From the IMG/VR virus record IMGVR_UViG_2850808358_000004: a stretch of DNA of 33,562 bases. The stretch is one strand, 5' to 3'. Both the position numbers and the translations under genes were made by a program. The notes beneath the pieces are model-generated. The model was not told the DNA's origin, searched no databases, and saw only the letters and a list, made by a program, of their open reading frames with translations. This document shows, in pieces, positions 1 through 20,526 of the stretch. Position 1 is the first letter of the stretch. Each line of letters begins with the position of its first letter. This DNA is from a virus (taxonomy: Duplodnaviria > Heunggongvirae > Uroviricota > Caudoviricetes).

Positions 1-57
1 GGTATCCGTTCTGCTGAAGTGTCATGGCGTTGATTTTACGGTGACTCTTCGACAGTG

Positions 58-83
58 AAAAGAAAAAAGGCCGCAGAGCGGCC
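58..83 (-). terminator. Rho-independent terminator-like hairpin (GGCCGC-AGA-GCGGCC at 69-83) followed on the minus strand by a T-rich run (complement of the A-run at 58-68)
   Basis: Perfect 6-bp inverted repeat with 3-nt loop directly read in sequence; T-tract lies 3' on the minus strand, immediately downstream of the leftward gene ending at 193. Confidence 0.45.
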
Positions 84-192
84 ATAATCACAACCCAAAA
101 CCAATAAGTTACATAATTATCAAAGAGTTACAGACACACAAAAACACAGCCAACCACAACAAATAACATAGATGTGGTCAATTTGTGGATCA

Positions 193-630: not shown

Positions 631-730
631 TCCGCCTCCACTACTGCCGCCATCGCCACCATGATAAAGCACATCACGCTCAGAATGCGACACACTACCT
701 GCTGAATTACCGAAAAGATTTCTTGCTACA

Positions 731-1231
731 TTACCCATTATCACCATCCTGCGCTTTGTCTTTCTCCAACCACTTCAGCACCGCAGACGTACGATAAAGG
801 CTCAGGTAACCACAATTCAGGCAATGCAGCGTGTAATAAGTTTTGCGCATATCAGGTATGCTCTTAACATCACCCAAAAAAGTATAAGATACATAATGCT
901 TTATGTTCTCTTTAATTAACTCACTCTGCTCCTCCAGGGGTAGGTTGTTAAAATTTTCTGGTTTCTTATTTTTATCCCAGCAAAGATCCATACTTTCAGG
1001 AACAGATAATCGCGACGATCCACATGAAGGGCAGACACTGGAGACCCCCTTCTCAGACAAGAAACGGAAGAAGATTTCTGGCGTAATCTCCATCAGCCGC
1101 TCTTTATGTTTTTTGACACGACTCATCGACTTCTTATTGATTTCATCAGCTTCTTCTTTGCATTTATCTTCTATATATTTCGATAGTAAATAGTCATATA
1201 ACTCTTTTTTTGTAGGTTTTTTTATTTCCAT
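731..1231 (-). CDS. Hypothetical protein with two CxxC pairs (CPSC ... CLNC; possible zinc ribbon), markedly AT-rich relative to neighbours
   Basis: 166-aa ORF, K/E-rich, start ATG 2 nt from the integrase stop; same strand as int and the coiled-coil gene; no recognisable catalytic motif. Confidence 0.5.
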   Translation of the reverse strand: MEIKKPTKKELYDYLLSKYIEDKCKEEADEINKKSMSRVKKHKERLMEITPEIFFRFLSEKGVSSVCPSCGSSRLSVPESMDLCWDKNKKPENFNNLPLEEQSELIKENIKHYVSYTFLGDVKSIPDMRKTYYTLHCLNCGYLSLYRTSAVLKWLEKDKAQDGDNG

Positions 1232-1233
1232 AG

Positions 1234-2210
1234 TTACATTCCTCCCAAGGGATTAAACCTCACCGCATCCTGCAAGTAATCCGGCGCAAGATGGGCATAA
1301 ATCATCGTTGTCTGAATCTTTGCGTGCCCCAGAATTTTCTGGAGCGTCAGAATATTGCCGCCGTTCATCATGAAATGACTGGCGAAGGTGTGGCGCAGCG
1401 CATGAACAGCCTGGCCGTCAGGAATATCAGGTGCGACCGTTTTGATAACATCACGAACCAGTGGATAATCCAGTGTTGGAAACACCAGCTTTCCGCCCCG
1501 TTTTTTGATCTTCTCAAACAGGCTTTCAGAGATAGGAACGGTACGGTTTTTACTGTTCTTTGTTTTTGAAAACGTGATTCGGCAATGAAGAACGCGACGC
1601 TGCTCCAGTGCCTCTACCTCGCCCATCGCGCCCCGGTCGACAGAAGGATTTCGACAGCCAGCCGTTCATCGGGATTTTCAGCCAGTGCATCCAGCAACTG
1701 AACACATTCAGACTTACTCAGATATCCCATTTCGCGCTCGTTAACCTTCATTCCTTTAAGGCCTTGAACGGGGTTATCGTTAAGAAAATGGCCGGATGAG
1801 ATGAGTGCGGTAAACATCGCGCTTAACGCCCCAATCTCTCGATTTATGGTGCTGGGTTGTATCCCCTGCTCTATCCTGTACACACGCAGCTCGGTGAGCA
1901 TCGTTGTATTAAGTTTATGCACGCACGGGTCATCCATTGCCTCACTCAAGCGCAGCAATTTAAGGTGCGTGTTATGCCCTGACCTCATTAACTGGCCGTG
2001 GTATTTCCACCACAAGTCAATAAGCACTGACAGCGGACGGCGATCAATGGAGTTTCCTTTCCACTCATTGTTATGCTGTTGCGCCAGCACCCACCGCTCA
2101 TATAAAACTGCATCCGATTTCGTTTTAAATTTTTTGCGAATGCGTTTGCCTTTACGCCCCTCAGGGCGCATGTCAAGAAGATACCCTCCCGGAATTGATT
2201 TTATGCTCAT
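1234..2210 (-). CDS. int: Tyrosine integrase (P2/186-type), interrupted by a single-base frameshift near 1615-1630 (possible pseudogene or sequencing indel)
   Basis: Two ORF-track pieces (1614..2210 N-terminal; 1234..1626 C-terminal) that together give about 325 aa; C-terminal piece carries HALRHTFASHFMMNGGNILTLQKILGH...MIYAHL typical of the tyrosine recombinase catalytic domain; frames join at ...STGARW / GEVEALEQ in a G-run. Confidence 0.85.
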
Positions 2211-2258
2211 TCGTGAAACCCCGGCGTTACAAGACCACCATGCCCCAGCGTTCCATGA

Positions 2259-2570
2259 TTAGCCGGGCTGTGTGCCAGTCTTGCGGGGGCTTTGTGAACG
2301 AGATGTGACATCGTACCCATCAGGGGAGAGAGCCGGGCTGATCTGCCCCGCAGCCTCATTTGTTTTTCCTGTCATAAGCCACATTGTGTACTTTTCGAAA
2401 TCTTTAGAATTAATTACGCGATCGACAACGCTTAAACCAACCTCTCTTTTGCCACTCTCATAATTCTTTATGGTTCCGAGATTTATCCCGGTAACATCGG
2501 CAAACTCAACTTGAGTTAACCCTTCACTCTTCCGTATCTCTTTCAGTTTTTTTTCATACCCACTTGACAT
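2259..2570 (-). CDS. Immunity repressor, P2 C-type (small HTH repressor)
   Basis: 103 aa; LTQVEFADVTGINLGTIKNYESGKR HTH; divergent from the early operon and adjacent to int, the position and size of the P2 C repressor; GGAGA upstream of ATG. Confidence 0.7.
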   Translation of the reverse strand: MSSGYEKKLKEIRKSEGLTQVEFADVTGINLGTIKNYESGKREVGLSVVDRVINSKDFEKYTMWLMTGKTNEAAGQISPALSPDGYDVTSRSQSPRKTGTQPG

Positions 2571-2662
2571 GGCAGTCTCCAGACGACTAAATTAATATCA
2601 AAAGTAGTCTACCGACGACTTTTTGGTAACAAATAACCACAGATAGAACAGGTTATCACATC
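2571..2662. promoter_or_regulatory. Divergent repressor/early promoter-operator (immunity switch) region
   Basis: 92-bp AT-rich gap between divergent C-type repressor and cox-like genes; direct repeats CAGACGACTAAA and CCGACGACTTTT about 34 bp apart resemble direct-repeat operators; exact promoters not determined. Confidence 0.45.
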
Positions 2663-2941
2663 ATGGCAGAGGTCTTGAATACATACGAACAGGAAGACAT
2701 TGAGCGTTTAGCGGCGTTCTACCCATACCGCGATGAGCATGGATTACCAATACTTGAAGAAAGCCTGAAAGATTACGCAAAGCGTACCAACCAAGCTGTT
2801 AACACAGTGAAAAGACAGGCTGACAGAGGTTCGATTCCCCTCACACCTGGTAAAAAGAACTCAAGACGCACAGTAAATCTCTTCGCAATTTTCCTGAAAA
2901 CAATCAGGAGCGCAGAGAAATACGTGCAGATGACAAAATAA
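2663..2941 (+). CDS. cox: Cox/Apl-like excisionase and early-operon regulator
   Basis: 92 aa, first gene of the rightward operon opposite the repressor; segment YAKRTNQAVNTVKRQADRGSIP is HTH-like, as in P2 Cox. Confidence 0.5.
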   Translation: MAEVLNTYEQEDIERLAAFYPYRDEHGLPILEESLKDYAKRTNQAVNTVKRQADRGSIPLTPGKKNSRRTVNLFAIFLKTIRSAEKYVQMTK

Positions 2942-2955
2942 CGAGGTGTCATTTT

Positions 2956-3294
2956 ATGCTGAAGCAACGCCGTAATTTTCGCACCGAAACGGAACGCCAA
3001 GCTAACCGTTTCGCTACCAGCGCATCACGCAGCAACATCCGCTACAGCCTGAGCGAGACGCACGCAACGCCAGATGGCCATACAGTAAAACAAATTGGCG
3101 AGCATACCTGGATGATTGAGAAAGCTGGAATAGTGGTCCACAAATACCCGCGCAATCCGTTTACCGGAAACCGCATTTTTGCTCTGAGCTGCGGCGACAA
3201 TCAGTTCGGGCAGGATTTCACGTTGTACGAAGCGCTACGCACAGTTGATCGCCTTCTTTACGGAGAAAATTTTATTAAACAGGCTGAGTTATAA
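2956..3294 (+). CDS. Hypothetical early protein
   Basis: 112-aa ORF with GAGGTG RBS, in early operon. Confidence 0.5.
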   Translation: MLKQRRNFRTETERQANRFATSASRSNIRYSLSETHATPDGHTVKQIGEHTWMIEKAGIVVHKYPRNPFTGNRIFALSCGDNQFGQDFTLYEALRTVDRLLYGENFIKQAEL

Positions 3295-3335
3295 CAGCGG
3301 GTTTATCACCGGTTATTTTTAACGAGGACTCCGTT

Positions 3336-3578
3336 ATGAGAAAACACACAGCAGAACAGGTAAACGAATTTCTGCAGGGATATTACTTCGATAACGAAAT
3401 TAATCCCCGCGCCAGAAAAACACACTTCGAAGTAATGAAGTGCGGAATATTCAGCGTCCGCAACACCCTGTTTTGTTCAAAAGATACGGGAGCCAGCGAG
3501 GACCTTAAAGAACTTAACCGGATGGCGAAACAATTAACGGATGGCATGGTTCCCGAACCCGCAATAATTACGGAGTAA
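3336..3578 (+). CDS. Hypothetical early protein
   Basis: 80-aa ORF with GAGGA RBS. Confidence 0.5.
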   Translation: MRKHTAEQVNEFLQGYYFDNEINPRARKTHFEVMKCGIFSVRNTLFCSKDTGASEDLKELNRMAKQLTDGMVPEPAIITE

Positions 3579-3583
3579 TCACG

Positions 3584-3769
3584 ATGAATTTCAGTTATTC
3601 ATTCAGTGTACCGGAGTCGTTATTTGTTATCACACTGATTGCAGCCGCAATGTTTTTTGCCATCTGCATACTGACACTTATTGATACATGGCGGGAAATA
3701 CGCGACAGACGTCGCCAGAAAAAAAACGGGATGCATACAACGCATTCATTCAGCACAAAGAAGACGTAG
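3584..3769 (+). CDS. Small membrane protein (single TM helix)
   Basis: 61 aa; hydrophobic stretch LFVITLIAAAMFFAICILTLI followed by basic tail RDRRRQKK; GGAGT RBS. Confidence 0.4.
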   Translation: MNFSYSFSVPESLFVITLIAAAMFFAICILTLIDTWREIRDRRRQKKNGMHTTHSFSTKKT

Positions 3770-3865
3770 AGCGTAAAGCACGCCGCCTCTTTAGTTAATT
3801 AACCGGTTTCGTTAATACACCGCTCACGCGGCGGGATTCGCACAATCTGAATAAGGGAAATAAAA

Positions 3866-4288
3866 ATGATTAATCCGACACTCACCCTCAAAGATAAAGC
3901 CCTTGCGGGCGCAATGTTTTTACGCAACTACGCCGCAATGATGGCTGACACTGACAACCCGATGATGGTGCTGTCAGTGGAGCCTCACCTTATCGCCGCA
4001 GACGCAATTGAACAGGTGGTACAGGAAAACACCTGTCTGAGAAATCAGCTTGCCACCCTTCAGACAGCAGCTGACCCGGCAAAGGAAAGTGCTGAACACA
4101 CCTGCCACACCACATTCATCAAAGGGACCCGCGTATGTCTGAAAAACAGTCCGCAGCAACGCGGAACGGTCGTTGACACCCGCACCAGTAGCCCCGCCAT
4201 TGACCGGGTTTTCGTCCGTTTCGATTCCCCCTTCGAGGAAGACCGCTGGGTAAAGACCAGAAACCTGGAAATAACCCCCGACAAATGA
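3866..4288 (+). CDS. Hypothetical early protein
   Basis: 140-aa ORF with AAGGGA RBS. Confidence 0.5.
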   Translation: MINPTLTLKDKALAGAMFLRNYAAMMADTDNPMMVLSVEPHLIAADAIEQVVQENTCLRNQLATLQTAADPAKESAEHTCHTTFIKGTRVCLKNSPQQRGTVVDTRTSSPAIDRVFVRFDSPFEEDRWVKTRNLEITPDK

Positions 4289-4461
4289 AGCTGATTATCC
4301 CTGCGCGACACCGCAAAAACCGGATGAAGCCAGGGGGAAAGCCGGAGCGGGCAGCAAGGGCGGCATACCGTCGCCTGCTGAAGGGGGACCGGTCACACGT
4401 GCGACGGCTGGAGCGGGTACCGCCCGCGTCATCAACGTCATGTACCGTTACCGGCTGTTAA
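4285..4461 (+). CDS. Small arginine-rich protein (58 aa), below the ORF-track size cut-off
   Basis: ATG at 4285 overlaps the upstream stop (ATGA); translation MKLIIPARHRKNRMKPGGKPERAARAAYRRLLKGDRSHVRRLERVPPASSTSCTVTGC read by hand; coding status uncertain. Confidence 0.3.
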   Translation: MKLIIPARHRKNRMKPGGKPERAARAAYRRLLKGDRSHVRRLERVPPASSTSCTVTGC

Positions 4462-4525
4462 GTCTGGACGAAGGCCGGACATGGGTACTGCTTAACCATA
4501 ACGAATACGTGAAGAGGATAAGACG

Positions 4526-5055
4526 ATGTTACAGATGAAATTTAAGCCCTGCTTTATTGACGCATTCCGCAACGGACGCAAGACCACATCCCTTCGCCCG
4601 ACGGGGTTTGATTGCTACCAGGCGGGCCAGGAGTCAGCAGAATATTTTCATGAAGACACCCTGCCCCGCAACATCGTTCTTCCCGATTACAGCGCCGGCG
4701 GTACCCTGGTTTTTGAGGAGGGAACCACATTTACCCGCGCATCAGACTTTGCCGGACTCCTGAAAAGACAGCCCTACCGGCAGTATGACAACATTCATCT
4801 GGTCACAGAAAACAAGAACGGCGAAACCGTGCCGTTCGCCGTGGCCTTCATTGCCGATATCGGTGTAATACAGGGCCGCCAGATAACCGATGAAGCGGCC
4901 GTCAGGGACGGCTTTAACCCTGAAAACCATCCCGCGACGAACTCTTTGCATTCATGCGGGACACCTGCCACATAGAAAACCCCAAAAACGAAACCTACTG
5001 GCGGTACACCTTCACCCACATCGTGATGTTGTCGCAGTGGAGGGCTGACGCATGA
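4526..5055 (+). CDS. ASCH-domain (PUA-like) protein, interrupted by a frameshift near 4930-4945
   Basis: ORF 4526..4975 ends ...DEAAVRDGFNPENHP then the C-terminal part (ELFAFMRDTCHIENPKNETYWRYTFTHIVMLSQWRADA) continues in another frame to the stop at 5053-5055; AGAGGA RBS. Confidence 0.5.
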
Positions 5056-5291
5056 AACCCGCCATTATCTGCATTCTGTGCGAGAGCACTGTCACCGGCG
5101 ACCATTACCGCATCAGGGAACGCCACATCAACCCTGACCGTTCGCTGCTGGACAACATCACCGGCCCGGATGATGAACGCGTGATCTGCCTGAACGACGG
5201 CTCGCAGTTACGCGTGCGCAATATCCGGCGCGAAATCACGCTCGAACCCACCCCATTCACACGCGGGAAAAAACCGGAGAGTGACGCATGA
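5052..5291 (+). CDS. Hypothetical early protein
   Basis: 79 aa, ATGA start-stop overlap with the ASCH gene and with dam. Confidence 0.45.
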   Translation: MKPAIICILCESTVTGDHYRIRERHINPDRSLLDNITGPDDERVICLNDGSQLRVRNIRREITLEPTPFTRGKKPESDA

Positions 5292-6250
5292 AAGGTATTC
5301 TGAACCAGCGCTCACCGCTCAAATGGGCGGGCGGCAAATTCAGTATCATGCCGCAGCTGCGCGAATATTTACCCAAAGCCGCCTGCCTGATCGAACCCTT
5401 CGTGGGCGGTGGCTCTGTCTTCATGAATACGGATTACGACCATTACGTATTGTGTGACAGCAACCCCGCGCTGATTAATTTCTACCAGCAACTGACGACC
5501 AACACCATGGAATTAATGGATCGTGCATGGTCACTCTTTAAGGATGGTGGCACACCGGAAGCCTACAAACGCCATCGCGGGGCATTTAACACCATCGCGC
5601 TGGCCACCGACAGATTACGCGGCGAATCCCTGGAATGGGCAGCGCTGTTTCTGTACCTGAACCGCTATTGCTTTAACGGCCTGCACCGCACCAACCAAAA
5701 AGGCGAATTCAATGTGCCATTCGGCAAACACCGCACACCTTATTTCCCCGATCAGGAAATGCGCCTGTTTGCTGATAAAGCCCGCGAGACACGAACCCGC
5801 TTTATTCACGCGGATTTCCGTACAGCCTTCACAATGCCGGCTGAGATCCGCCGTTTTTCTTCAGTGCACGGCGGTATCGCCATTTACTGCGATCCGCCCT
5901 ACCTGCCGCCGGACGGTAAAGAGGCATTCACTCACTACAACGGCCGGGCATTCACCCGTAAAGACCACCGTGACCTTGCGGCGCTCATGATGAACGCCTG
6001 GCAGCGTTACGGTATCCGCCCGGTGGTCTCCAACAGTGACACCACCGAAACCCGGCAAATCTATTCCTCGTTTGAGCTGCACACCCTGAGCGTTCGCCGC
6101 TCTGTTGCTGCCAGCAGCAGCGCACGCCAGCAGGCAAAAGAGGTAATTGGTGTTTATCCGCCAGCCCATAAAAGCCAGCTCCGGGACGTCAATGTGGGCT
6201 GGCCGTCTCCCCTTCACGCTCCACACCCCACCACGGAGATCATGCAATGA
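5288..6250 (+). CDS. dam: DNA adenine methyltransferase (Dam family N6-adenine MTase)
   Basis: N-terminal KWAGGK SAM-binding motif and DPPY catalytic motif read in translation; 320 aa. Confidence 0.9.
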   Translation: MKGILNQRSPLKWAGGKFSIMPQLREYLPKAACLIEPFVGGGSVFMNTDYDHYVLCDSNPALINFYQQLTTNTMELMDRAWSLFKDGGTPEAYKRHRGAFNTIALATDRLRGESLEWAALFLYLNRYCFNGLHRTNQKGEFNVPFGKHRTPYFPDQEMRLFADKARETRTRFIHADFRTAFTMPAEIRRFSSVHGGIAIYCDPPYLPPDGKEAFTHYNGRAFTRKDHRDLAALMMNAWQRYGIRPVVSNSDTTETRQIYSSFELHTLSVRRSVAASSSARQQAKEVIGVYPPAHKSQLRDVNVGWPSPLHAPHPTTEIMQ

Positions 6251-6558
6251 CCGTTATCTATATCGCCGGCCCCATGACGGGAAAGCCTGATTTCAACCGC
6301 ACCGCCTTCACCATGACAGCGACCCGCCTGAGGATGCAGGGCCATACCGTACTCAACCCCGCAACACTCCCTGACGGGCTGAGATACAGGGACTACATGC
6401 TTATCGGGAGCGCCATGCTGCACTGTGCCGATGTGATTTACCTGCTGGATGGCTGGGAGGACTCGCCGGGGGCAAAAGAGGAACACGCCACCGCCCTGAA
6501 ACTGAATCTGATCATCTCCACACCAGAAAGCCGTAAGGAGGCCAAATCATGTTTCTGA
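6247..6558 (+). CDS. DUF4406-type protein (nucleoside 2-deoxyribosyltransferase-like fold)
   Basis: 103 aa; N-terminal VIYIAGPMTG and DGWEDSPGAKEE motifs typical of this family; ATGA overlap with dam. Confidence 0.6.
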   Translation: MTVIYIAGPMTGKPDFNRTAFTMTATRLRMQGHTVLNPATLPDGLRYRDYMLIGSAMLHCADVIYLLDGWEDSPGAKEEHATALKLNLIISTPESRKEAKSCF

Positions 6559-7102
6559 AACCAATGGGGGACCAGGTAAAGCACCGAAGCACGTCAGTGC
6601 ATGGACACAACAGGAAGACGAACTGCTTATCTCGCTTTATCAGGATCACAGCACATGGCAAATGGCTGAACGACTTCAGCGAACCCGCAGCGCAGTGATG
6701 CACCGGATTCTTTTTTTACGTAATCGCGGGTTGATTGGTCGCAAGAAAAAAGCACCGCTGAGTGCAGAAGCCATCGCCTTTCTCATCAAAAACCGTCACG
6801 CAAAAACCGCACGGGAACTGGCCCGGAAGGCGGGATGCAGCGAGTGCACCGTGAGGTACACACTGCATAAACGGGGTTACAGCCTTAAGAAATGCGGCGA
6901 GAGCCACCATTGCACCAGATACAGCGATCGTCTGGCTGAGCTGGTTACGGAGCTACGCGACAGACGCAACATGACGTTCTGCATAATCGCGAAACACATC
7001 AACATCACGATGCAAATGCACATCAGCGATGATACGGCGTTTCACCTCTACAACCGCCGGACCGCCGCCGACGCCCTGTTGTACGAACTGCTGCCGAACT
7101 GA
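6549..7102 (+). CDS. HTH DNA-binding protein, N-terminus likely displaced by a frameshift in the G5 run at 6566-6570
   Basis: ORF track gives 6662..7102; upstream the same frame stays open and protein-like (SAWTQQEDELLISLYQDHSTWQ) but has no start; ATG 6549 has a near-consensus AAGGAGG RBS but is in a different frame; HTH-like segment TARELARKAGCSECTVRYTLHKRGYS. Confidence 0.45.
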
Positions 7103-7423
7103 GTGATCATCATGCACACACAAAAAAAACCGCTTGCCATGTCGCAATCAGTCAGGTTACATTTCCGCTGCACCTCATAAAACGGGTGCCGGGTTTCGCA
7201 GCCCGCTGACAAACATAGCGCACAACCGCGCCAGCGGTTTTTTTGTGCGTACTGTATCGCCACATCTTTTTCGCACACGAATTATGGTGGGGCGTACGGG
7301 GCCGACTTCGGTCGGGCCGGGTTCTATGTTTGCCGGTACTGCGAACCTCGTACGTCTCGCCACCCACAGTTTCGCAGCTCTGGATGGTGAGTTTTCAAAA
7401 CTTACACACATAGAGGCCACATC

Positions 7424-7654
7424 ATGGCAAACCGCAAACAACAGCGCGCATACGCTGCGCGTCGTCACATCCGGACTGAAATCAACCGCAGACTTTTCCG
7501 CGCATCACGCGTCGCGCAAATCATGCACATCAATATGCTGCATGAACGCAGCCACGCGCTGTCAGACAGCTACTGCGCCGCTGTATTCAGCTATCTGGCG
7601 GATGATCTGCACGAGCTTCAACAGCTCATCCAGCAGCAAAACAAACTCCATTAA
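7424..7654 (+). CDS. Hypothetical small basic protein
   Basis: 76 aa, K/R/Q-rich, AGAGG RBS; preferred over the overlapping 198-aa ORF 7134..7730, whose composition looks non-coding. Confidence 0.4.
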   Translation: MANRKQQRAYAARRHIRTEINRRLFRASRVAQIMHINMLHERSHALSDSYCAAVFSYLADDLHELQQLIQQQNKLH

Positions 7655-7726
7655 TTCCTGTTCCGGGCCTTTCCTGCACCTTGCGGCGGGAGGCCTTCGC
7701 ACATCTTTAACAAAGCGAGGTGCAGC

Positions 7727-8116
7727 ATGATTGACCGTCATGACTTCGTAAAATGGGTGCGCACACAGGACACCCGTCTGGCTCCAAAACTTCAGGCAAT
7801 GTTTGATTTCTATCTCCGTGCCCGCGCCAGCCAGGCTCGCACCACAAAACCAGAGAACGCAGGCCCCCTTTATTTCATCGTGGACGACTGTTACCGCGTG
7901 GACTTCACACCACACGGTCTGGCCCTGTACACCCTGACACCACACGGCGACTCCCTGCTGGCGTATTACAACTCCCCTGCCTCCGTGTTTGCAGCAATGC
8001 TGGCGCATCGCACCGCTGGCGGGTGTGCCTCGCTGAGTGAATACACCACTGAGTTTAACCGTCTTTCTGCCCTCTTCTCGCAGGAATGGCAACGCGTGAC
8101 AGGGTGTCAACCATGA
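7727..8116 (+). CDS. Hypothetical protein immediately upstream of the replication gene
   Basis: 129 aa, GAGGTG RBS, stop overlaps the gpA start. Confidence 0.5.
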   Translation: MIDRHDFVKWVRTQDTRLAPKLQAMFDFYLRARASQARTTKPENAGPLYFIVDDCYRVDFTPHGLALYTLTPHGDSLLAYYNSPASVFAAMLAHRTAGGCASLSEYTTEFNRLSALFSQEWQRVTGCQP

Positions 8117-10605
8117 GTGAATTTACCTGGGACTGGAACGAACCACGGCAGGCCATTGACCCAGCCACATTTGCGAAGTATCAGCCTACGCCTGAAACCC
8201 CGTTGCAACAGGCCATACGCTACTACCAGGAAGCAGATCTGAAAGCACAGGAAGTCAGGGAGGCGGAAGAAGAAGCCTTTTTTGTGCAGTCAGACATGGG
8301 TAAAAAACTCATGGTCGCCCTCGATGAGGACGAACGGCGCGAGAAGGTAACACAAAGCATCATCAGCAAGCGCCAGGCAACAGAACAAGACCCGGTGGCC
8401 CGTGCATTTGTCACACTAAAGGCGCTACCTGTTTATCTGCGTGAACCTCTGAGCCGCCGCCTCTCTTTTTTACGTAAGAAGCAGGAATCTGACCGCCAGA
8501 AAGGCAAAAAGAGTCGACCATCAGAGGGCTACGCGCGCGGAACCCTGCGCAAAATATTCGAACGACTGGACCGCACCGACAGCCGCTGGCTGACACCGGG
8601 TTATCGCGCCCTTGCCGGACGCGAACGCCTGGACGATTTGCTGTACCTGCCGCAGCTTAACAAGCACCAGATACAGACGCTGGGCACCATGACGGCGGCA
8701 ATGTTCAGCAGCTCCTTTGAAACACTCTGTGATGGTTTCGGTGCCAGAGATGGCGAGCTGACCATGGAGGTGGCACTGAAGGCGTATCAGATGCTGGCCC
8801 GCATGGCGCTACACCTGCACGCCATGCCTCCACATTATGACGCGCTGACAACAGACAAAGACCGCAAGAACGAACCGGACACGGAACTGCTGCCGGGCGC
8901 AATCCTTCGCCTGACCTGTGCGGACTGGTGGAAACGCAAACTGTGGCTGTTACGTTGCGAGTGGAGAGAAGAACAACTCCGCGCCGCCTGTCTGGTTTCC
9001 AGAAAAACATCGCCCTATCTGAGCCAGGACGCGTTAAGTGAGTTTCGCGCACAGCGCGAGAAAACACGCGATTTCCTGAAAAGTTTCATGCTGGAAAATG
9101 AAGACGGGTTCACGATTGATCTCGAGACAGTGTATTACGCGGGAGTAAGTAACCCGGTTCACCGTAAGGCAGAAATGATGGCCACCATGAAAGGGGCGGA
9201 ACTTATAGCCGAATCCCGTGGCGACAAAGCGGTGTTTCTGACTGTCACCTGCCCGTCAAAATACCACGCAACAACGGAGAACGGTCATCCGAACCCCAAA
9301 TGGAACGGGGCTACCATGCGCGATTCCAGTGATTATCTGGTTAACACTTTTTTTAAAGCCGTTCGTAACAGACTGGACCGCAAGGGCCTGCGCTGGTATG
9401 GCATCCGCACGGTGGAGCCTCACCATGACGGCACGGTGCACTGGCATATGATGGTCTTTGCACATCCTGAAGAAATCGACAGCATCGTGACCATCGCCCG
9501 CGATATTGCCATTCGTGAAGACCGCCACGAGCTGGGCGATGACATAACTCCGCGCTTTAAGGCGGAGTACGTCGACGGTTCGAAAGGTACGCCGACCAGC
9601 TATATCGCCACCTACATCGGAAAGAACCTGGACAGCCACGCCGTGGATGGCATTGACCCGAAAACAGGCAAACCGCGCATCGACGACGAATCAGGAAAGA
9701 CGATGGCAGAAAGCGTGGAACGCGCCATCGGCTGGGCGCGCCTTCACCGGGTCCGCCAGTTCCAGTTCTTTGGCATCCCCTCCCGTCAGGTATGGCGTGA
9801 ACTGCGCCGCCTTGCCAGCCAGATGGCACGCAACCCGGAAGGCCCGCAACGGCTGAAGGATGACGCAATGGATGCGGTTCTTGCTGCCGCTGATGCCGGG
9901 TGTTTTGCCACCTACATAGAGAAACAGGGCGGCGTACTTGTTCCACGTAAGGACTACCTGATTCGCACCGCCTACGACCTCGCAGATGAGCTGAACGATT
10001 ACGGCGAACAGAGCGTACAGATTTACGGGATCTGGTCGCCACTCATCGGGGAATCCTCCCGTGTGTGCACGCATCCGGACAACTGGAAGCTGGTAAGACG
10101 TAAACCGGAAGCGGAAGACAGCGCCCGCGAAAATGGTTTTGACCTTCAGGGCGGCCCTGCCGCCCCTTGGACTCGTGGCAATAACTGTCCCGGTGACGAA
10201 AAAACAGCCGGAACCGGCACAGAAAACAGGCAGCGTGGGTCGCGGCTGACGCTTCCGGAAAGCGGCCTGGCGCACTGGTTGCAGACGTTAACCCGTCACG
10301 AGCGGAAACAGCTCATCAGACAGCTTAAAAATCAGCCGCCCACCACGGATACCGGACAAAATAACACCAGACCAGCATCAGACACCCCTGTCAGGGTGGA
10401 GGTTGTCGTGCCTGTCGACACCACGACCATCGCACAAATCACCCGCGAACTCGACGCGCTGGGTGTGCAGCTGCCTGACGCAGCCATTATTTCCGTGAGT
10501 AACGGTGCCCGCGTTCGCCCGGGCGACGGGCGTATCGCGTACTGGAGCGCCACAACCCGCCGTATCGTCATCACACAGGAGTCGTCAGCGGAGGTAAGAT
10601 CATGA
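8113..10605 (+). CDS. Replication initiation endonuclease, P2 gpA family (rolling-circle HUH initiator)
   Basis: HUH-type motif HHDGTVHWHMMVF and paired tyrosines in TSYIATYIGKN; start taken at ATG 8113 (ATGA overlap with upstream stop) rather than 8086 from the ORF track. Confidence 0.9.
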   Translation: MSEFTWDWNEPRQAIDPATFAKYQPTPETPLQQAIRYYQEADLKAQEVREAEEEAFFVQSDMGKKLMVALDEDERREKVTQSIISKRQATEQDPVARAFVTLKALPVYLREPLSRRLSFLRKKQESDRQKGKKSRPSEGYARGTLRKIFERLDRTDSRWLTPGYRALAGRERLDDLLYLPQLNKHQIQTLGTMTAAMFSSSFETLCDGFGARDGELTMEVALKAYQMLARMALHLHAMPPHYDALTTDKDRKNEPDTELLPGAILRLTCADWWKRKLWLLRCEWREEQLRAACLVSRKTSPYLSQDALSEFRAQREKTRDFLKSFMLENEDGFTIDLETVYYAGVSNPVHRKAEMMATMKGAELIAESRGDKAVFLTVTCPSKYHATTENGHPNPKWNGATMRDSSDYLVNTFFKAVRNRLDRKGLRWYGIRTVEPHHDGTVHWHMMVFAHPEEIDSIVTIARDIAIREDRHELGDDITPRFKAEYVDGSKGTPTSYIATYIGKNLDSHAVDGIDPKTGKPRIDDESGKTMAESVERAIGWARLHRVRQFQFFGIPSRQVWRELRRLASQMARNPEGPQRLKDDAMDAVLAAADAGCFATYIEKQGGVLVPRKDYLIRTAYDLADELNDYGEQSVQIYGIWSPLIGESSRVCTHPDNWKLVRRKPEAEDSARENGFDLQGGPAAPWTRGNNCPGDEKTAGTGTENRQRGSRLTLPESGLAHWLQTLTRHERKQLIRQLKNQPPTTDTGQNNTRPASDTPVRVEVVVPVDTTTIAQITRELDALGVQLPDAAIISVSNGARVRPGDGRIAYWSATTRRIVITQESSAEVRS

Positions 10606-11033
10606 CGCGATTTCACTGCACCATGCAGCGTCAGCAGTTCGACGCCGTTATGCGCCAGCGCACGCCAGCCATGACACTGAGAGGCGTAGCCACAAGACCA
10701 CAGCCCGGGGACGAACTGGAAATCACGGTGGCCAGCCCCGATCGCACCACCACAACCACCATCACCGACATACTTAACAGGCGACCGGGCAGTGAATATC
10801 AGAGCTGGACCATTGCCGTTCGCCCACGCCGTTCGCCGGAAGAACCGGAGCCGCTCACCCCGGCCGGAAAAATCATGCAGAAGTACCACGAAGAGCAGGC
10901 CCGCAAACACAATGTCGCGCTGGCCAGAACACTGACTGCCGTCAATCGCAAGGCCGCACTGGCGCGAAGGGTCTTTTCATCGCAGCACCCTTCATTCGCC
11001 AGACCGGCACAACACAGGAGAGATCCACAATGA
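10602..11033 (+). CDS. Hypothetical protein
   Basis: 143 aa, ATGA overlap with gpA stop. Confidence 0.45.
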   Translation: MTRFHCTMQRQQFDAVMRQRTPAMTLRGVATRPQPGDELEITVASPDRTTTTTITDILNRRPGSEYQSWTIAVRPRRSPEEPEPLTPAGKIMQKYHEEQARKHNVALARTLTAVNRKAALARRVFSSQHPSFARPAQHRRDPQ

Positions 11034-11278
11034 GAGAGCAATTACCAGACACCGTGCCAGTACAGGAAATCAAAGAAAATATCAGGCAACAACTTCACGG
11101 ATTTTATATTACTTATGATTTGTGGCTGAAAAACGGAGCAAATCCAGACGGAATATTTTCGCGAAACTGTGGTTTATGCGCCAGCCTCTGGGATTATCTC
11201 GAATTAACGGGTGCTGATAAAGAAGCCGCACTGGAGCTATTGCACATTGATTTCAGAAATGCCGGGCGAACCGCATAG
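11030..11278 (+). CDS. Hypothetical protein, AT-rich (possible moron)
   Basis: 82 aa, ATGA overlap with upstream gene; lower GC than flanks. Confidence 0.4.
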   Translation: MREQLPDTVPVQEIKENIRQQLHGFYITYDLWLKNGANPDGIFSRNCGLCASLWDYLELTGADKEAALELLHIDFRNAGRTA

Positions 11279-11333
11279 CGGTGAGTCTGTCAGGGCGAGG
11301 AAGCGGAAGATCCACCGCCCCACAGAATGGCAC

Positions 11334-11597
11334 TTACGCGCCATCACTGAGCAGAATATCCAGTGCCATTTGCCTTTCGTCTGGTTTAAGGCGCTGGAGC
11401 AATGCTTTAACGACACCATCAGTTTGCAGGTCACTGGGTGAAATCACGCGAAGATCGGAAAGATTGAGCGAAAAACGCATATTACAGTCAGAATTAGTGC
11501 AGGTGCAATAAACTACCGCCAGCGTTTTTGCGTCATCCTGCCATGCAGTTTTGCGTATAGCCGCCCGGCAGTGACACGCCGGACATTCAATTTTCAT
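11334..11597 (-). CDS. ogr: Ogr/Delta-family zinc-finger late-gene transcription activator
   Basis: MKIECPAC...(26 aa)...CTNSDCNMRF matches the Ogr/Delta CxxC-Xn-CxxxxC zinc-finger pattern; start taken at Met5 of ORF 11334..11609. Confidence 0.6.
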   Translation of the reverse strand: MKIECPACHCRAAIRKTAWQDDAKTLAVVYCTCTNSDCNMRFSLNLSDLRVISPSDLQTDGVVKALLQRLKPDERQMALDILLSDGA

Positions 11598-11659
11598 CAC
11601 ACCCGCCATAACCCCCCCACAATCTGACCGGTTGCAGGGGTAATATAGTCTTTTTCGGG

Positions 11660-12714
11660 TTATTTTTCATCAGCCAGCGCAGACACCACATTTTCCACAT
11701 CTTCCAGCGTAAAATTAAGGTGTAACGACGGGGGGATTTCGGGATCGCTGTTCACAGCCTGCATGAATTTACGGCAGACAGGTGTCACTTCATCCCGTCC
11801 ATAGGTTGTCCTTGCCTTATCGGGATCGCCAAGTCCGCTCGCATTTTGCGGGATAATACCGGCAAGACCAGCCGGAAAGCGGTGCGCCGTAAGAACATCC
11901 TGAGCGCTGATATTCTTCACATTTGAAAACTCATCTTTTTGCTGAATATCCCCAACCGGAATAATTTTAATCCCGTCCGGTTGCCCTTTTGGGATACTGA
12001 TAAACATGTTACGGAAATTCCCAAGCCCGTTACCGCTCTCTATTTTTTTACGTATAGCTTCTTCAGCCTCAACAGACATATTCGGGTCGGACGCGTACAT
12101 GATGAACCCCATATGCGCACCGTTGTGATAGTAGCGACGTCTGAAAATGGTCGCCTCACTGTTCAGTAACGCTGAATGAATACCACCGATATAATCAGGC
12201 AGTCCATAAATCTGCTGTCGCGGATCATGCATACGTAAAAACACAACATCAGACGGCGAATAGACCAGCGGCTCGCCCTCCTGTAACACGATAAAATCAA
12301 GTTGCTTGCTGCGACGCAGATACAAAGACGGTAATGGTGCCAGCGCCACCACCCGTCCCCACCCGTTACGGACCTTCAGAATGGCCACATCACCAAACAG
12401 CAGGTAGTCAAAGACAGCCATTTCCATCTGATCGGTCGTCAGTCCACCCCCCTGGTAGCTGGCACACACCATATTTTTGCGTGCATACAGTACGCCGCCA
12501 TGCTGGGCGTTAAGGTTCGGCAACTGCGCGAGCGCAAGTCTGTCTATTGGTAGTGTCCAGTAGTTGTAGCTACCGTTATACCAGACGTTGATGTATTCCG
12601 TGCCGGTAGTCAGTATCGGTTCCGGCTCCCAAAAGTGATAATATTGCCGCGTCCGGGAGTAAAATTTTCTGTCTGTGCCCGTTTACGCAGGCGTGCGCTT
12701 TTACGTTTACTCAT
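11660..12714 (-). CDS. Portal protein (P2 gpQ family), frameshift near 12620-12630
   Basis: ORF 11660..12523 contains QQIYGLPDY...LNSEATIFRRRYYHNGAHMGFIMY as in P2 gpQ; N-terminus MSKRKSARLRKRAQTENF from ATG 12714 is in a different frame and terminates; joining frames at a T4/G3 run restores ...IITFGEPEPILTTGTEYINVWYNG... Confidence 0.85.
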
Positions 12715-14533
12715 GCAGCCTTCCCGAATGCCCACACCGAGGGGCGGTCATATTCATAGTCGAGCGGTTCATTACAGACCGCGTGCGATATGGCAAAAAA
12801 TACGTCCGCGTGACCGGTCGTTTCGCTGCGTTCGGCGGCGAACGTCATTGCATTCTGACTGGCAGTCATTACACGGCGGATGGCCATAAATGCCAGCGGG
12901 ATATCGGCACGTTCTTTTGTCACCTCATCAACCGCATCTTTCACCCACTGGATACGTCGCCGCTCAATGAGGTCAATCATCTTAAGCACCAGTTTATTTT
13001 TATTATCAACACTGTAGTTAATCCCCATCACCTCACGCGGTGCGGAGCGTACCAGTTGATCATAAACACCCCGGCCAATACCCGTGATATCCACCCCGAT
13101 ATGCGTAAACCGGTAGCGTTTCATTAATTCTTCAATCTGCTTAACCTGCCAGGTGAAGTTAAGCCCCACCCACTGGTAGACAGCCAGCACGCGAAATTTT
13201 TCTTCAGGCTCAACAGGCGGGGCCACAATAACAAATGTTGAGTTATCACCCGTTCGTGACGGATCAAAACCACCCCACACCTCACGATTACCAAAAGGCC
13301 GTAATGCGGAGGGGTCGAAGTCCTGCCAGATGCCGAACTCAACCTCACATTTTTCAAGGTCTGAGAATTTAAATACTGTGTCGCGGGAGTCAGTGAACTC
13401 ACACATGTACAGCATGGCAAACGCCGTGGCGCTGTAGCGGTTACGCAGCTTCTCAATGTTAACTCTGGCACTGAGTCCCTTAGCGCACGCATCCTCCATT
13501 GTGATGACATAGCGCCAGATCCCGTCAGGGCAGACCTGTCCACCTTTACGCAATTCCTTGCTGGTCGGGAACTCCGCCGCCTTACGTTTCGGATCGTCGC
13601 CCTTCCATTCATCCCCTGTCCACAGCCTGTAAGCCTGGTGCGTTTTAGCGCTGGGGTTGAAAAATAGGTAATACGGAATTCGTCATGCGTCGCCATCGCT
13701 GACGCCACTTCATGCAGGCGGGCAAATTTCGGTATCCAGAAGACCTCATCCCCGTACAGGTCGCCACTGTAGGACTGCGCCGTATTGGGATTGGTCGCCA
13801 GAAAACGCAGTATCGCACCATTGCTGAGGCGAATCGGGTTGCCTTTAAGCTCGACACCAAAGAATTGCTGCGCAATACTGAGAATATAGAAACGGAAAAC
13901 TTCCGCCTGGGGTTTACTGGCGGAAAAGAATATCTGATTCTTGCCCGTGAGAACGGCCTTTTCAAACCCTTCCCATGCAAAATAGTAGGTAAATCCTTCC
14001 TGTCGCCCTTTCAGAATGAAGCGGAACAGTTCGTCGCCGTGCTCACGCACATATTGCTGATATTCAAACAGATGACCATTCGCTTTTTCATCAAATATTT
14101 CTTTTGTCAGTCCGCCGACATCATTTTTACGTAGTCGCTTCCTTTTTTTACCACCTTCGTCATTCCCTTCTTCACTGCTACCCTGTCGGCCATCATTGAC
14201 CACCACGCCGGTATTGACCATCGCCCGGATCTCTTCCATCCGTTCAGCATGTTTGTTCTTCTGCGCCATCAGCCTGACGTGCTGGAATATCAGGAAGCGC
14301 AGCTCTTCAAGCTCAAGCTCGCTTTTACCATCCTTGCAGGTCAGTCGTTCCACTCGCCGGGCGACAGCCACTTCCACCGACTCGGCTGGTAACATTTCAT
14401 TCCATTGCCCCCGGACAGCCCAGTTATAAACGGTACGCACAGGAAGCCCCAGCGTGGCCGCTATCTCTTTTGGTGTACTGAATTTCAGATACAGGGCGCG
14501 GGCAGCGTCCCTGACTTCTTCGGTATATTTCAT
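12711..14533 (-). CDS. Terminase large (ATPase) subunit, P2 gpP family, frameshift near 13570-13600
   Basis: Two overlapping ORF-track pieces in different frames (13124..14728 N-terminal, 12711..13553 C-terminal); start assigned to MKYTEEV at 14533; joined length about 606 aa; frames meet at ...ITYFSTPA / KTHQAYRLWTGDEW in T/C/A homopolymer runs. Confidence 0.85.
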
Positions 14534-14690
14534 TCGCCCATCATAAAGAGCAATAACACTCTGAAATATCGTTAAATTTTGGCATTTTTCGCACATAAAA
14601 TCATATACGAAAAGCCCGGATTCAGAACGAATGAAACCCGCGAAAACAGCCGCAATAATACCGCCAGATACATCAAAAAGCGGTAATGAA

Positions 14691-15803
14691 ATGGCAAAGC
14701 AGAAATACACCACTGACTGGATATGCATAGCAACCGAAGGCTACGCCATCGACGGTCGCCCCATTACCCGCGAAATGATCCAGCAGGCCGCTGACAACTA
14801 CAGCACCGCCAGATACACAGCGATGATCTGGCCTAATCACCCCGTATACAGTCTTCAGGAGCGAGAATTTACCCCCAATCTGGGGCTTGTTTCCGAGCTG
14901 GCGGCTAAAGAAGACGCCGGAAGACTGCGCCTTATGGCGAAGCTGGAGCCTAACCAGGCGCTGGTTAACCTTAACGATCGCGGCCAGAAGCTCTTTACCT
15001 CGTGCGAGTTCTGGGAGAACTATGCCAACACCGGGCAAACCTATCTGTACGGGCTGGCAGCAACCGACAGTCCGGCAAGTCTGGGAACCCAGCGCATGGA
15101 AATCAAATCAGTGGAAAACAACACACAGGGCTCACGTCCGCAGTATGCCGCCGCTGGAAATATTGAAATGTTCAGTCTTGGGCGTCTGACGCTGGTCGCT
15201 GACACCCCAACAAACCATCATGAGGATAAATCCATGACTAAAGAACAGGCGAACCAGTTGCTAGCCCAGATTGTCACTCTGACGGCAAAAATTGACGCGC
15301 AGGCGAACACGCAACCACAGGCACAGCAACCCGCACCGGCGCAGCCCACGGCATCCGCAACAGCAGACACACAGCCAGTAACCGGGGATTTCAGCGCTCA
15401 CGCTAATCACGTTGCGGAGCTGAGTGAAAAGCTTTCCGTTGCCACTGACACACTGGCCATCAACCCGAAAGACGACACGGCACGCCAGAACTACACCACC
15501 GCCGTGACGGAGCTACAGACCGCACTTAACACCTTTACGGTGCAGCCACAGGATGCTGAAACCGCAAAACTCCAGGCACGTATCGCCGCCCGTAATGGCG
15601 GACAACAGCCAGCGCCAGCCGCAGCGCAGAATTTCAGTACCCGGAAGACGGAAAAAGATGATGAGGCCGACGCCGCCACACTGACAACGCTTACCAGTGC
15701 AATCGAAAATCTGAGCCAGCGTTTTTCGGTCATTGAAAGCCAGCGCACACCGACGCCGGGCGCAGCCCCCGGCGGACAACCCGCGCAGTTTGAGCCGCTG
15801 TAA
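14691..15803 (+). CDS. Capsid scaffolding protein (P2 gpO family) with expanded Q/A/P-rich linker
   Basis: MAKQKYTTDWICIATEGYAIDGRPI... and FWENYANTGQTYLYGLAATDSPASLGT match the gpO N-terminal domain; start taken at Met21 of the ORF-track entry. Confidence 0.8.
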   Translation: MAKQKYTTDWICIATEGYAIDGRPITREMIQQAADNYSTARYTAMIWPNHPVYSLQEREFTPNLGLVSELAAKEDAGRLRLMAKLEPNQALVNLNDRGQKLFTSCEFWENYANTGQTYLYGLAATDSPASLGTQRMEIKSVENNTQGSRPQYAAAGNIEMFSLGRLTLVADTPTNHHEDKSMTKEQANQLLAQIVTLTAKIDAQANTQPQAQQPAPAQPTASATADTQPVTGDFSAHANHVAELSEKLSVATDTLAINPKDDTARQNYTTAVTELQTALNTFTVQPQDAETAKLQARIAARNGGQQPAPAAAQNFSTRKTEKDDEADAATLTTLTSAIENLSQRFSVIESQRTPTPGAAPGGQPAQFEPL

Positions 15804-15850
15804 GCGGTCGTTGAGAAAAACAGACAAAAGGACCAACCGGAGAAAAACCA

Positions 15851-16900
15851 ATGGCCGCACAGATGTTATCACCACAGGCGCAAAAGTTTTTGCGTAATTA
15901 CGCCATTTCGATGGCAAAAGCCAATGGCGTATTTACAGCACAACAGTTTTTTTACCATCAGCCCACCACGTGAAACCCTGCTACGCGATGCCCTGATTGA
16001 GAATGCCGACCCGTTCATGGGCAAGATCACCGTCATGCTGGTCGAACAGCTTGTCGGCCAGGTAGTCAGTACCGGAATTCCGGGCTGTATACCGGGCGCA
16101 AGAAAGACGGACGCTTCAATAAAGCGCTGGGGAGTGAAGGCAACGAGTACAAGCTTTACGAAGTGGATTCCGGTTCATTCCTGGACTACACCACCCTGAC
16201 CAACTGGGCAAACGCAGGCACCGAAAACGAGTTCTATAACCGTCTTCAGGCGTTCTTTTACAAGTCAGTCACCAACGACCTGTTACGCGTGGCACTGAAC
16301 GGTACGCATGCCGCAGATGAAACCAATCCTGATACCTGCCCGAACGGGGAAGATATTCACCCGGGATGGCATCAGATTGTTAAAGCGCGCACACCAAAAC
16401 AGATCATTACTGACAAGGTCGTATTGAACCGTACAGGAACCGGGGCTGATTTTACGTCTGTTGATGCTATTGCCGCCGATGTAATTAATACCTGCATTCC
16501 ACCCGAATTCCGTCAACACCCGGATCTGGTTGTACTGGTATCACAGAACATTATCGCAGCAGATACGGTCAGTATGCTGAACCGCATCGACCGCCCGACA
16601 GAAAAAGTCGCCGCCCAGCTTATCAACCGTGAGATCGCCGGACGCAAGTCATTCAGTCCGCCATTTATGCCGGATAACCGCCTGGTTGTCACCACGCTCT
16701 GGAATCTGCATATGTACTTCCAGCGCGGAACACAGCAACGCCGTGCTGAATGGATTGATGACCGCAAACGCTTCGAAAACAACTGGCTGCGTATGCAGGG
16801 TTGCGCCGTGGAATATGACGCACTCTACGGTTCATTTGACAACATTGAACTGGCGGGACTGCCATCACCTGAACATGCGAAACCAAACCAGGTAGCATAA
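15851..16900 (+). CDS. Major capsid protein (P2 gpN family), interrupted by two frameshifts (about 15945-15951 and 16080-16090)
   Basis: Three consecutive frames: 15851 (MAAQMLSPQAQKFLRNYAISMAKANGVFTAQQFF), 15924..16199 and 16163..16900 (DPDLVVLVSQNIIAADTVSMLN...YFQRGTQQRRAEWIDDRKRFEN like gpN); shifts fall in a T7 run and a GGG run. Confidence 0.85.
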
Positions 16901-16911
16901 CGGTCTGACGT

Positions 16912-17580
16912 ATGCAGACTCCGGCGCAAAAGTTCAGAGCCAGACTGGCCGCGCAGCAGGCGATGGAACGCCACGAGGCACTGACCGTACGCGACAGTCT
17001 TCATCTGCAACTGGCGCAACTGGAAATCGACTGCAGGGCTGTGAGCAGTTGCGCCACCAACGCCGATCGTGTGGCATTCAAGCGTGAATCCCTGCTGCCG
17101 CGCTGGATGCCGACGATTGAGGCGTGGCTGCAAAGCGGCGAGGAGTACAAATACATCCCGTTTACCTGGTGCATCGTCTGGCTGTTTGATACCGGCGAAA
17201 TGGACAAAGCCCTGGAATGGGCCGATATCGCCATCGGGCAGAATCAACCCATGCCACCACGCTTTGACCGTGATTTGCCAACGTTCGTTGCCGATGAGGT
17301 CATGCAGTGGGCACAGATTCAGTTTGATAAAGGCCTTTCCGTCGAGCCCTATTTCAGCCGCGTGATGAGCCATATCGAAAAAGACTGGACACTGCACGAA
17401 GAGATAGTTGCCAGATGGTACAAATTCGCCGGTCTTAACCTGTTACGGGACAGCGATGGCAAACCGACAACCCCGGCCGCCATTTACGACGTGGCGAAAC
17501 TACGTAGCGCCGATGAGTGGATGGCCCGTGCGCACAGCACCACCCCAAAGCAGGTGTTCGCGCCATACGAAACAAAATAG
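16912..17580 (+). CDS. Terminase small (endonuclease) subunit, P2 gpM family
   Basis: 222 aa, position between capsid and head completion genes as in P2 ONML; assignment by synteny and size. Confidence 0.65.
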   Translation: MQTPAQKFRARLAAQQAMERHEALTVRDSLHLQLAQLEIDCRAVSSCATNADRVAFKRESLLPRWMPTIEAWLQSGEEYKYIPFTWCIVWLFDTGEMDKALEWADIAIGQNQPMPPRFDRDLPTFVADEVMQWAQIQFDKGLSVEPYFSRVMSHIEKDWTLHEEIVARWYKFAGLNLLRDSDGKPTTPAAIYDVAKLRSADEWMARAHSTTPKQVFAPYETK

Positions 17581-17716
17581 CCGCCCGTCTGCGCGCATTA
17601 CGGGCGGTATAACGAAAGCCCCACGGCTTCAGGCGGGCACGGTGAGGATGACACGCACAAGCGTCAGTCATGCCGCAGAACCGTTCGCCCGACCTGACCT
17701 ACACAGAGAATCAGTC

Positions 17717-18663: not shown

Positions 18664-18666
18664 ACA

Positions 18667-19395: not shown

Positions 19396-19398
19396 CCC

Positions 19399-20523: not shown

Positions 20524-20526
20524 CCC

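Follow-up and report, generated by a model that had tools for sequence, protein, structure and literature searches.

Do the interrupted genes of this prophage record mutations in the phage, or mistakes in its sequence? The window, by which we mean the entire stretch of 33,562 nucleotides that was analyzed, is a P2-like prophage taken from NCBI record CP026877.1 (assembly GCA_002950035.1). Seven of its genes change frame, at eight single-base indels in homopolymers: the integrase, a 176-amino-acid hypothetical protein, a DNA-binding gene, the portal, the large terminase, the capsid (twice), and the small terminase gpM. From sequence comparisons, we put the probability at about 93% that these frameshifts arose as errors in the consensus of the deposited assembly and are not mutations of the phage.

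The element itself is most likely a P2-like prophage in intact form, inserted between btuC and ihfA. The attL core at 59-83 is a 25-bp direct repeat (AAAGAAAAAAGGCCGCAGAGCGGCC), and a Logan contig from SRR6049580 and one further alignment both begin there. The second copy of the repeat (attR) lies 262 nt past the end of the window, ahead of ihfA, so neither attachment site has been lost. The gene set is complete. As in other P2-like temperate phages (Peduoviridae), the gene order begins with the integrase, the repressor, the gpA replication endonuclease, and ogr; the portal and the large terminase lie on the opposite strand; and the scaffold, a P2-family capsid, and the small terminase are followed by tail, lysis, and baseplate genes. 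The assignment to this family rests on the capsid, scaffold, terminases, opposite-strand portal, gpA, ogr, integrase, and att repeats, with Pfam matches to PF05125, PF05944, PF03237/PF17289, PF04860, and PF00589; the gene tables also list Phage_GPA and Phage_GPO_N. The early region is closest to phage P88 / Xuanwuvirus, but among the matches listed, phage records cover at most 21% of positions 1000-17500. The best matches listed for those positions are prophages in genomes of EIEC/E. coli and S. boydii.

We located each indel exactly by nucleotide alignment to near-identical relatives, and we give each change as the expected run followed by the run in the window. The integrase (1234-2210, minus strand; 325 amino acids when repaired) is split at a CCC run at 1622-1624 where relatives have CCCC. 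By tblastn, amino acids 1-197 are in frame -3 and amino acids 196-325 are in frame -2. The repaired protein is identical to WP_032334408.1 and has the Pfam domains Int_N and Phage_integrase. The 176-amino-acid hypothetical protein (4526-5055, plus strand) changes frame at a CCC run at 4931-4933 (CCCC in relatives), so that tblastn finds amino acids 1-136 and 137-176 separately; repaired, it is WP_119181836.1. The gene for the DNA-binding protein (184 amino acids; 6549-7102, plus strand) shifts at codon 6, in a GGGGG run at 6566-6570 that is G6 in relatives, and tblastn places amino acids 7-184 in a different frame from its ATG at 6549.

The other four genes are involved in head formation or packaging. 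In the portal gene (351 amino acids; 11660-12714, minus strand), the CCC run at 12628-12630 is CCCC in relatives, and amino acids 28-351 are in a separate frame from the N terminus (tblastn). The large terminase (607 amino acids; 12711-14533, minus strand) is shifted at GGGG at 13653-13656, which is G5 in relatives; its halves match amino acids 1-297 and 278-607 (tblastn), and once repaired it is WP_119181277.1 of S. boydii. The P2-family major capsid protein (349 amino acids; 15851-16900, plus strand) has both a T7 run at 15947-15953 that is T6 in relatives and a GGG run at 16082-16084 that is G4, and tblastn covers it from end to end only if about 45 codons are read in a shifted frame. Finally, gpM (233 amino acids; 16912-17612, plus strand) is shifted near its 3' end, at a CCCC run at 17543-17546 (C5 in relatives), which swaps out the last 21 amino acids.

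Three more of the eleven indels in the window are non-coding: C5 to C4 at 2243-2246, between the integrase and repressor genes; A7 to A8 at 7122-7129, 20 nt 3' of the DNA-binding gene; and C5 to C4 at 32630-32633, between a 562-amino-acid gene and hok. A twelfth indel (C7 to C6), also non-coding, lies about 190 nt past the end of the window, so that four of the 12 are in non-coding spacers and the indels fall irrespective of coding status. Within the window, one base is missing from each of nine G/C runs, and two A/T runs each have one base too many.

The first-pass annotation of this DNA, which covered 1234-16900, had reported seven single-base frameshifts in which both halves stayed protein-like, with both insertions and deletions at homopolymers. 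This was confirmed, with some corrections: both halves of each gene that it named match a single reference protein by tblastn, and the shifts that it placed near 1626 (integrase), 4935, 6566-6570, 12625 (portal), and 15948 and 16085 (capsid) correspond to the sites given above. The shift in the large terminase is real but had been placed near 13580, which is not the true site, and the eighth coding indel was missed; gpM lies just outside the range. Two of the labels fared less well. The gene near 4935 had been called ASCH, but our Pfam search found no family for the repaired 176-amino-acid protein; and the gene at 6566-6570 had been called HTH, for which we found only a sub-threshold match to HTH_11.

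If the frameshifts are errors, then other copies of the same prophage should be whole. We compared the window with copies from four other samples: the S. boydii draft GCA_003572525.1 and the Logan assemblies DRR015988, SRR6049580, and ERR586867. Three of these (GCA_003572525.1 with four contigs, and DRR015988 and SRR6049580 with two each; the contigs are typical of short-read assembly) carry the prophage at the same btuC/ihfA site and show zero substitutions across about 39 kb, that is, about 27 kb of the window (1-7319, 9040-24532, and 29236-33562) and about 12 kb of host flank (3.2 kb and 8.6 kb). The mismatches at 29232 and 29235 are within the first 20 bases of one draft contig. These contigs differ from the window by homopolymer indels only, and the genes at those sites are intact. 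All 12 of the differences are gains or losses of one base in mononucleotide runs of 4-7. Intact run lengths were also found, at the sites covered, in the complete genomes of E. coli CFSAN029787, FDAARGOS_943, and O145 RM9872 and in Logan ERR586867. Because assemblies of the same prophage are identical except for run lengths, and all of their genes are whole, we consider the indels to be errors rather than mutations. The first-pass annotation had preferred assembly errors over pseudogenization and had suggested a comparison to related prophages; the three zero-substitution copies with intact runs uphold that preference. Its statement that there is no other decay also holds, as these copies reveal no substitution, IS insertion, deletion, or nonsense mutation. 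The short-read assemblies that we used as comparators may be from sister isolates and not from the same culture as the source strain, which leaves a small probability of a very recent, strain-specific change.

The protein comparisons agree with this. Restoring one base per site yields seven proteins, each with an exact full-length match to a protein that is known elsewhere. In the order integrase, 176-amino-acid protein, DNA-binding protein, portal, large terminase, capsid, and gpM, they are found on 2, 3, 63, 183, 3, 189, and 28 contigs. We also searched for ten of the fragment proteins in a collection of 15 billion proteins. Four of the 10 were present, each on the source contig only, and six were absent from the collection, probably because the gene callers had picked other start codons. 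A scan for the T run of the capsid gene matched three contigs in IMG/VR, all three with T6, and had no match among GTDB species-representative genomes.

Could the isolate truly carry these frameshifts, for instance after decades of storage or passage, so that this is a cryptic prophage that lost function only recently? In favor of this, pseudogenes abound in Shigella genomes, the half of the prophage with the integrase, early, and head genes holds the cluster of indels while 11.8 kb of host flank has none, and the comparators may be other isolates. Like the cryptic prophages of E. coli and Shigella, this element has prophage genes that are interrupted by frameshifts and sits in a Shigella/EIEC-type host genome. 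However, true cryptic prophages also have substitutions, deletions, IS insertions, and lesions that are common to related strains, and the window prophage has none of these: identical or near-identical copies elsewhere are intact, the full gene set is present, and both att repeats remain. Eleven indels in the window with zero substitutions do not fit real decay. In E. coli mutation-accumulation experiments, the ratio of indels to substitutions is roughly 1:10, and 12 indels to zero substitutions over about 39 kb is far from any natural ratio. Genuine inactivation also does not account for one gene (the capsid) being struck twice; for changes that are confined to homopolymers with a bias like that of a sequencing platform (G/C runs shortened, A/T runs lengthened); for truncated products that, where found in the collection, are on the source contig alone; or for the three of 11 indels in non-coding spacers, as would be given by errors that are blind to coding. 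We therefore consider recent pseudogenization to be very unlikely.

The distribution of the indels is uneven: ten lie within 1.6-17.5 kb, and the 15-kb module of head-completion, tail, lysis, and baseplate/fibre genes (17717-32478, plus strand) has none. Nearly all of the proteins of this module are 100% identical to their counterparts in E. coli CFSAN029787. In 1-17.7 kb, 10 of the 113 susceptible runs were affected, whereas the 71 in the tail module were all untouched (p = 0.007, Fisher's test), so the errors are not proportional to the number of susceptible runs along the prophage. There is no indel in the 11.8 kb of host flank (3.2 kb and 8.6 kb), but the prophage was not significantly enriched relative to the host flanks (p = 0.70, from a count made before the position of attR was known). 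The clustering is not expected from an error process that is uniform across the genome, and it points instead to a local dip in quality.

The clustering might also be read as a real and non-random burst of -1/+1 slippage in about 16 kb of a single prophage, by local error-prone repair or by selection for domestication. If so, the integrase, the portal, both terminase subunits, and the capsid would have been lost while the tail module stayed pristine, as in an early step towards a tailocin. We consider such a burst to be even less probable than simple pseudogenization. The selective form of the argument, in which head, packaging, and integration functions are lost and tail and lysis functions are kept (or local error-prone repair removes one base from G/C runs), has in its favor that every coding frameshift is in an integrase, early, portal, terminase, or capsid gene and that the tail, lysis, and baseplate module is clean despite its 71 susceptible runs. 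But every point against recent pseudogenization holds here as well; the scaffold and gpA genes are unaffected; the change in gpM touches just its last 21 amino acids; the tail module is flanked by non-coding indels (at 7122, at 32630, and past the end of the window); and at least three other assemblies contain identical prophages in which all head genes are intact. We reject decay of the tailocin type because some of the indels are in non-coding spacers and because the head genes of identical prophages are whole elsewhere, and we give this selective version less credence than the burst in general.

The explanation that we find hardest to credit is that the window is correct and the other assemblies are wrong, or that the sites are programmed frameshifts or phase-variable tracts. 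Nothing specific speaks for it, beyond the fact that mononucleotide runs are a substrate for slippage and all of the sites are such runs. Independent assemblies, among them three complete E. coli genomes, one NCBI draft, and three Logan runs, are consistent with one another and encode full-length, family-typical proteins, and the homopolymers concerned are just 3-8 nt long. At the eight coding sites there is no slippery heptamer that is conserved in that state in homologues, which encode all seven of the proteins in a single frame. The only conserved two-frame layout, and the only plausible site of programmed frameshifting, is in the tail chaperone (A7 at 22540-22546), which is unaffected.

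As to how consensus errors of this kind would arise, the pattern of indels matches the known miscalling of homopolymers in long-read consensus sequences. CP026877.1 presumably comes from a series of historical Shigella genomes that were sequenced with PacBio only. The long-read consensus would have miscounted short mononucleotide runs: G/C runs of 4-7 would have been under-called by one base, ten times if we include the site past the end of the window, and two A/T runs of 6-7 would have been over-called by one base. Within a gene, such a miscount would shift the frame and lead gene callers to report two fragments.

There is a close precedent in Clostridium autoethanogenum DSM 10061: PacBio RS II called homopolymers of 4-8 nt too short, and a single genome thereby acquired about 240 false deletions and 142 falsely annotated frameshifts (PMC4687164). 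As in our case, single-base deletions at homopolymers of about 4-8 nt, with no accompanying substitutions, produced falsely split genes that were exposed by comparison to short reads. There, the same strain was resequenced and Sanger sequencing was used, whereas we compared independent assemblies of an identical prophage, and two of our events are insertions in A/T runs. Errors are also locally denser here, at about 1 per 3 kb versus about 1 per 18 kb in that genome (PMC4687164). More broadly, long-read errors are mostly homopolymer indels, and genes are fragmented by them (PMC12007338). The same paper, on Kastor, describes how homopolymer indels create apparent pseudogenes that can be recognized from the alignment of both fragments to a single reference protein, as is the case here; it deals mainly with nanopore data, in which deletions in A/T homopolymers prevail, while here it is G/C runs that are shortened (PMC12007338).

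This is an ordinary artefact, and its significance is practical, not biological. Anyone who draws ORF calls, counts of pseudogenes, or a "defective prophage" label from this record would be misled for at least seven genes, and tools that assess prophage completeness would rate as degraded a P2-like phage that is apparently intact and may be inducible. The same density of errors may extend to other regions of CP026877.1 and perhaps to its sister assemblies, which is relevant to studies of pseudogenes and genome reduction in Shigella that use such records as references. The approach used here needs no reads: repair one base, look for an exact full-length match to a protein from elsewhere, and check comparators with zero substitutions.

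One of the shortened runs does occur elsewhere. The C4 to C3 change at 4931 is also in the draft genome of S. flexneri 1485-80, which has the same 149-amino-acid truncation. We considered whether this is evidence of a real allele and concluded that it does not: S. flexneri 1485-80 is of a different lineage (97.5% identity) and has split genes of its own, and therefore has no bearing on the lineage of the window. Its state at 4931 may reflect either an error that recurs or a true polymorphism of that lineage.

The window is a P2-like prophage, according to the ORF map and similarity searches. An exact-protein match places it in CP026877.1, a chromosome of 5,129,092 bp (assembly GCA_002950035.1), where it is inserted with btuC on one side and ihfA on the other. 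A 25-bp direct repeat, AAAGAAAAAAGGCCGCAGAGCGGCC, delimits the prophage between these two genes. The first copy is at 59-83, and the second is 262 nt past the end of the window (13035-13059 of L012, a stretch that includes attR), so the window's right edge just misses attR. The repeat has a terminator-like hairpin inside it. The gene order begins with the integrase (1234-2210, minus strand) and the repressor, followed by a set of small early genes together with a Dam-type methylase and the replication endonuclease gpA (8113-10605). Then come ogr; the portal and large terminase (both on the minus strand); the scaffold, P2-family capsid, and small terminase; a 15-kb module with head-completion, tail, lysis, and baseplate/fibre genes; and a hok gene. 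This hok/gef-family toxin gene (33419-33559) lies at the prophage's right end, internal to the att repeats, and the ~500 nt around it show the greatest divergence from the enteroinvasive E. coli strain CFSAN029787. Overall, the element is an ordinary P2-like phage, with a resemblance to phage P88 (Xuanwuvirus) in the early region and 99.6-99.7% identity to the prophage of CFSAN029787 in the late region.

The first-pass annotation had described several core genes as switching frame once or more, with both halves protein-like and with single-base breaks mostly at homopolymers. We searched with tblastn, using proteins of the annotated relatives E. coli CFSAN029787, FDAARGOS_943, and O145 RM9872, and every one of these genes lies in two frames with both parts matching one protein. 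Nucleotide alignments to the relatives map all of the breaks to mononucleotide runs. The description holds. The breaks (with the run length in near-identical relatives and then in the window) are in the integrase at 1622 (C4 to C3), a 176-aa hypothetical protein at 4931 (C4 to C3), a DNA-binding gene at 6566 (G6 to G5), the portal at 12628 (C4 to C3), the large terminase at 13653 (G5 to G4), and the capsid at 15947 (T6 to T7) and 16082 (G4 to G3). The large terminase break had been placed near 13580, which is 75 nt away, and Pfam does not support the earlier “ASCH” label for the 176-aa gene. All seven listed sites stand, but one more had been overlooked: gpM, the small terminase, is shifted at 17543 (C5 to C4), which brings the coding frameshifts to eight. 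Non-coding homopolymers have three more indels (2243, 7122, and 32630), and a twelfth is immediately beyond the window. The 12 events show a directional bias: ten G/C runs became shorter and two A/T runs became longer. Four of the 12 are in spacers, so the events disregard coding status.

We compared ten of the fragment proteins, by exact sequence, with ~15 billion proteins. Four were found, each on the source contig alone. If one base is put back in each run before translation, then each of the seven repaired proteins matches an existing protein in the collection exactly and from end to end (on 2, 3, 63, 183, 3, 189, and 28 contigs). Three are rare alleles, namely those of the integrase, the large terminase, and the 176-aa protein, with names from Shigella boydii or Shigella genomosp. 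SF-2015.

Contigs that carry these rare repaired alleles were chosen for the comparison with closely related prophages that the first-pass annotation had proposed as a check. The S. boydii draft GCA_003572525.1 and the Logan assemblies DRR015988 and SRR6049580 share this prophage and its btuC/ihfA insertion site, with intact runs and with every gene whole in all of them. There are no substitutions across 1-7319, 9040-24532, and 29236-33562, nor in the host flank (3.2 kb on the left and 8.6 kb on the right). The sole differences are 1-bp homopolymer indels, eleven of them within the window and one outside it. Furthermore, the capsid T-run is T6 in all three IMG/VR contigs that have the site, and never T7.

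The best-supported reading (probability of roughly 0.93) is that the prophage is intact and that its frameshifts arose as artefacts in the deposited consensus. Source-only fragments, exact repaired matches, and intact identical prophages all bear out the original preference for assembly indel errors over pseudogenisation. In E. coli mutation-accumulation work, substitutions usually exceed indels several-fold; 12 indels with no substitutions over ~39 kb are unlike natural sequence divergence. The CP0268xx records probably belong to a set of historical Shigella genomes sequenced with PacBio only (Kim et al. 2018, cited in PMC8767346). The indel pattern matches documented long-read consensus behaviour. 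For example, in C. autoethanogenum, PacBio RS II under-called homopolymers of 4-8 nt; the ~240 deletions and 142 frameshift annotations that resulted were false, and they were later corrected with Illumina and Sanger data (PMC4687164). In long-read assemblies generally, homopolymer indels are the dominant error, and they fragment genes (PMC12007338).

The indels are clustered. Counting runs of the kinds that were hit (G/C runs of at least 4 and A/T runs of at least 6), 10 of 113 susceptible runs were hit in 1-17.7 kb, versus 0 of 71 in the tail module (p = 0.007, Fisher exact test, post hoc). No susceptible run was hit in the ~12 kb of host flank, and the prophage did not differ significantly from the host (p = 0.70, with the runs counted before the position of attR was known). 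Clustering is the one point in favour of a genuine recent inactivation of the prophage, which we consider improbable, and likewise of a selective loss of head functions or localised mutagenesis, which is more improbable still. Against both, substitutions are wholly absent, spacers were also hit, and identical prophages exist with their genes intact. If the frameshifts are consensus artefacts, the clustering could be explained by lower coverage or consensus quality over a stretch about as long as one long read, or else by a join of two contigs.

The flagged frameshifts belong with the homopolymer artefacts that are well known from long-read data. They pass neither the tests that define a cryptic prophage nor those that define programmed frameshifting, so they are not a real biological feature. 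They are a caution for users of this record and a worked example of recognising such errors without reads. One other frameshift in the window is likely genuine, and likely the only one that is. The tail assembly chaperone ORF (22277-22737) has the 3' end ...GTA AAA AAA TAA, and the -1 frame is open across 22510-22737 and encodes the part that is annotated elsewhere as DUF6890. Judging from the sequence, the programmed -1 frameshift that is usual in tail chaperones probably occurs here at the A7 run at 22540-22546, which is free of assembly indels.

Across the tail module (17678-32475), we saw four isolated substitutions relative to CFSAN029787 and nine more clustered in the tail-fibre gene (28208-28486). 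Divergence from that strain is ~0.3% in the head region and ~4% in the early region; such unequal divergence is typical of a recombination mosaic. CFSAN029787, the closest E. coli relative, also carries an insert, made up of an IS600 copy and a pair of HTH/PIN genes, that separates the 82-aa gene from ogr (L001, a stretch of that genome, 11383-14577); the counterpart in the window (~11270-11330) is without it. In a related prophage (95-97.5% identity) from an older draft of S. flexneri 1485-80 (AMGB01000002.1), the 176-aa gene is cut to 149 aa by the same C4 to C3 change, and this prophage has its own split gpA, three-piece large terminase, and split DNA-binding gene; this is probably a further assembly with homopolymer errors. 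Finally, a prophage in PSSR01000003.1 (GCA_002968245.1) that shares the left arm and has an identical integrase adjoins yhbY-ftsJ-ftsH, not btuC. Its junction, near 12,050-12,150 (AAAAGGCCGCAGAGCGGCC), reflects either another attachment site whose hairpin core is similar or a rearrangement of the chromosome through the prophage.
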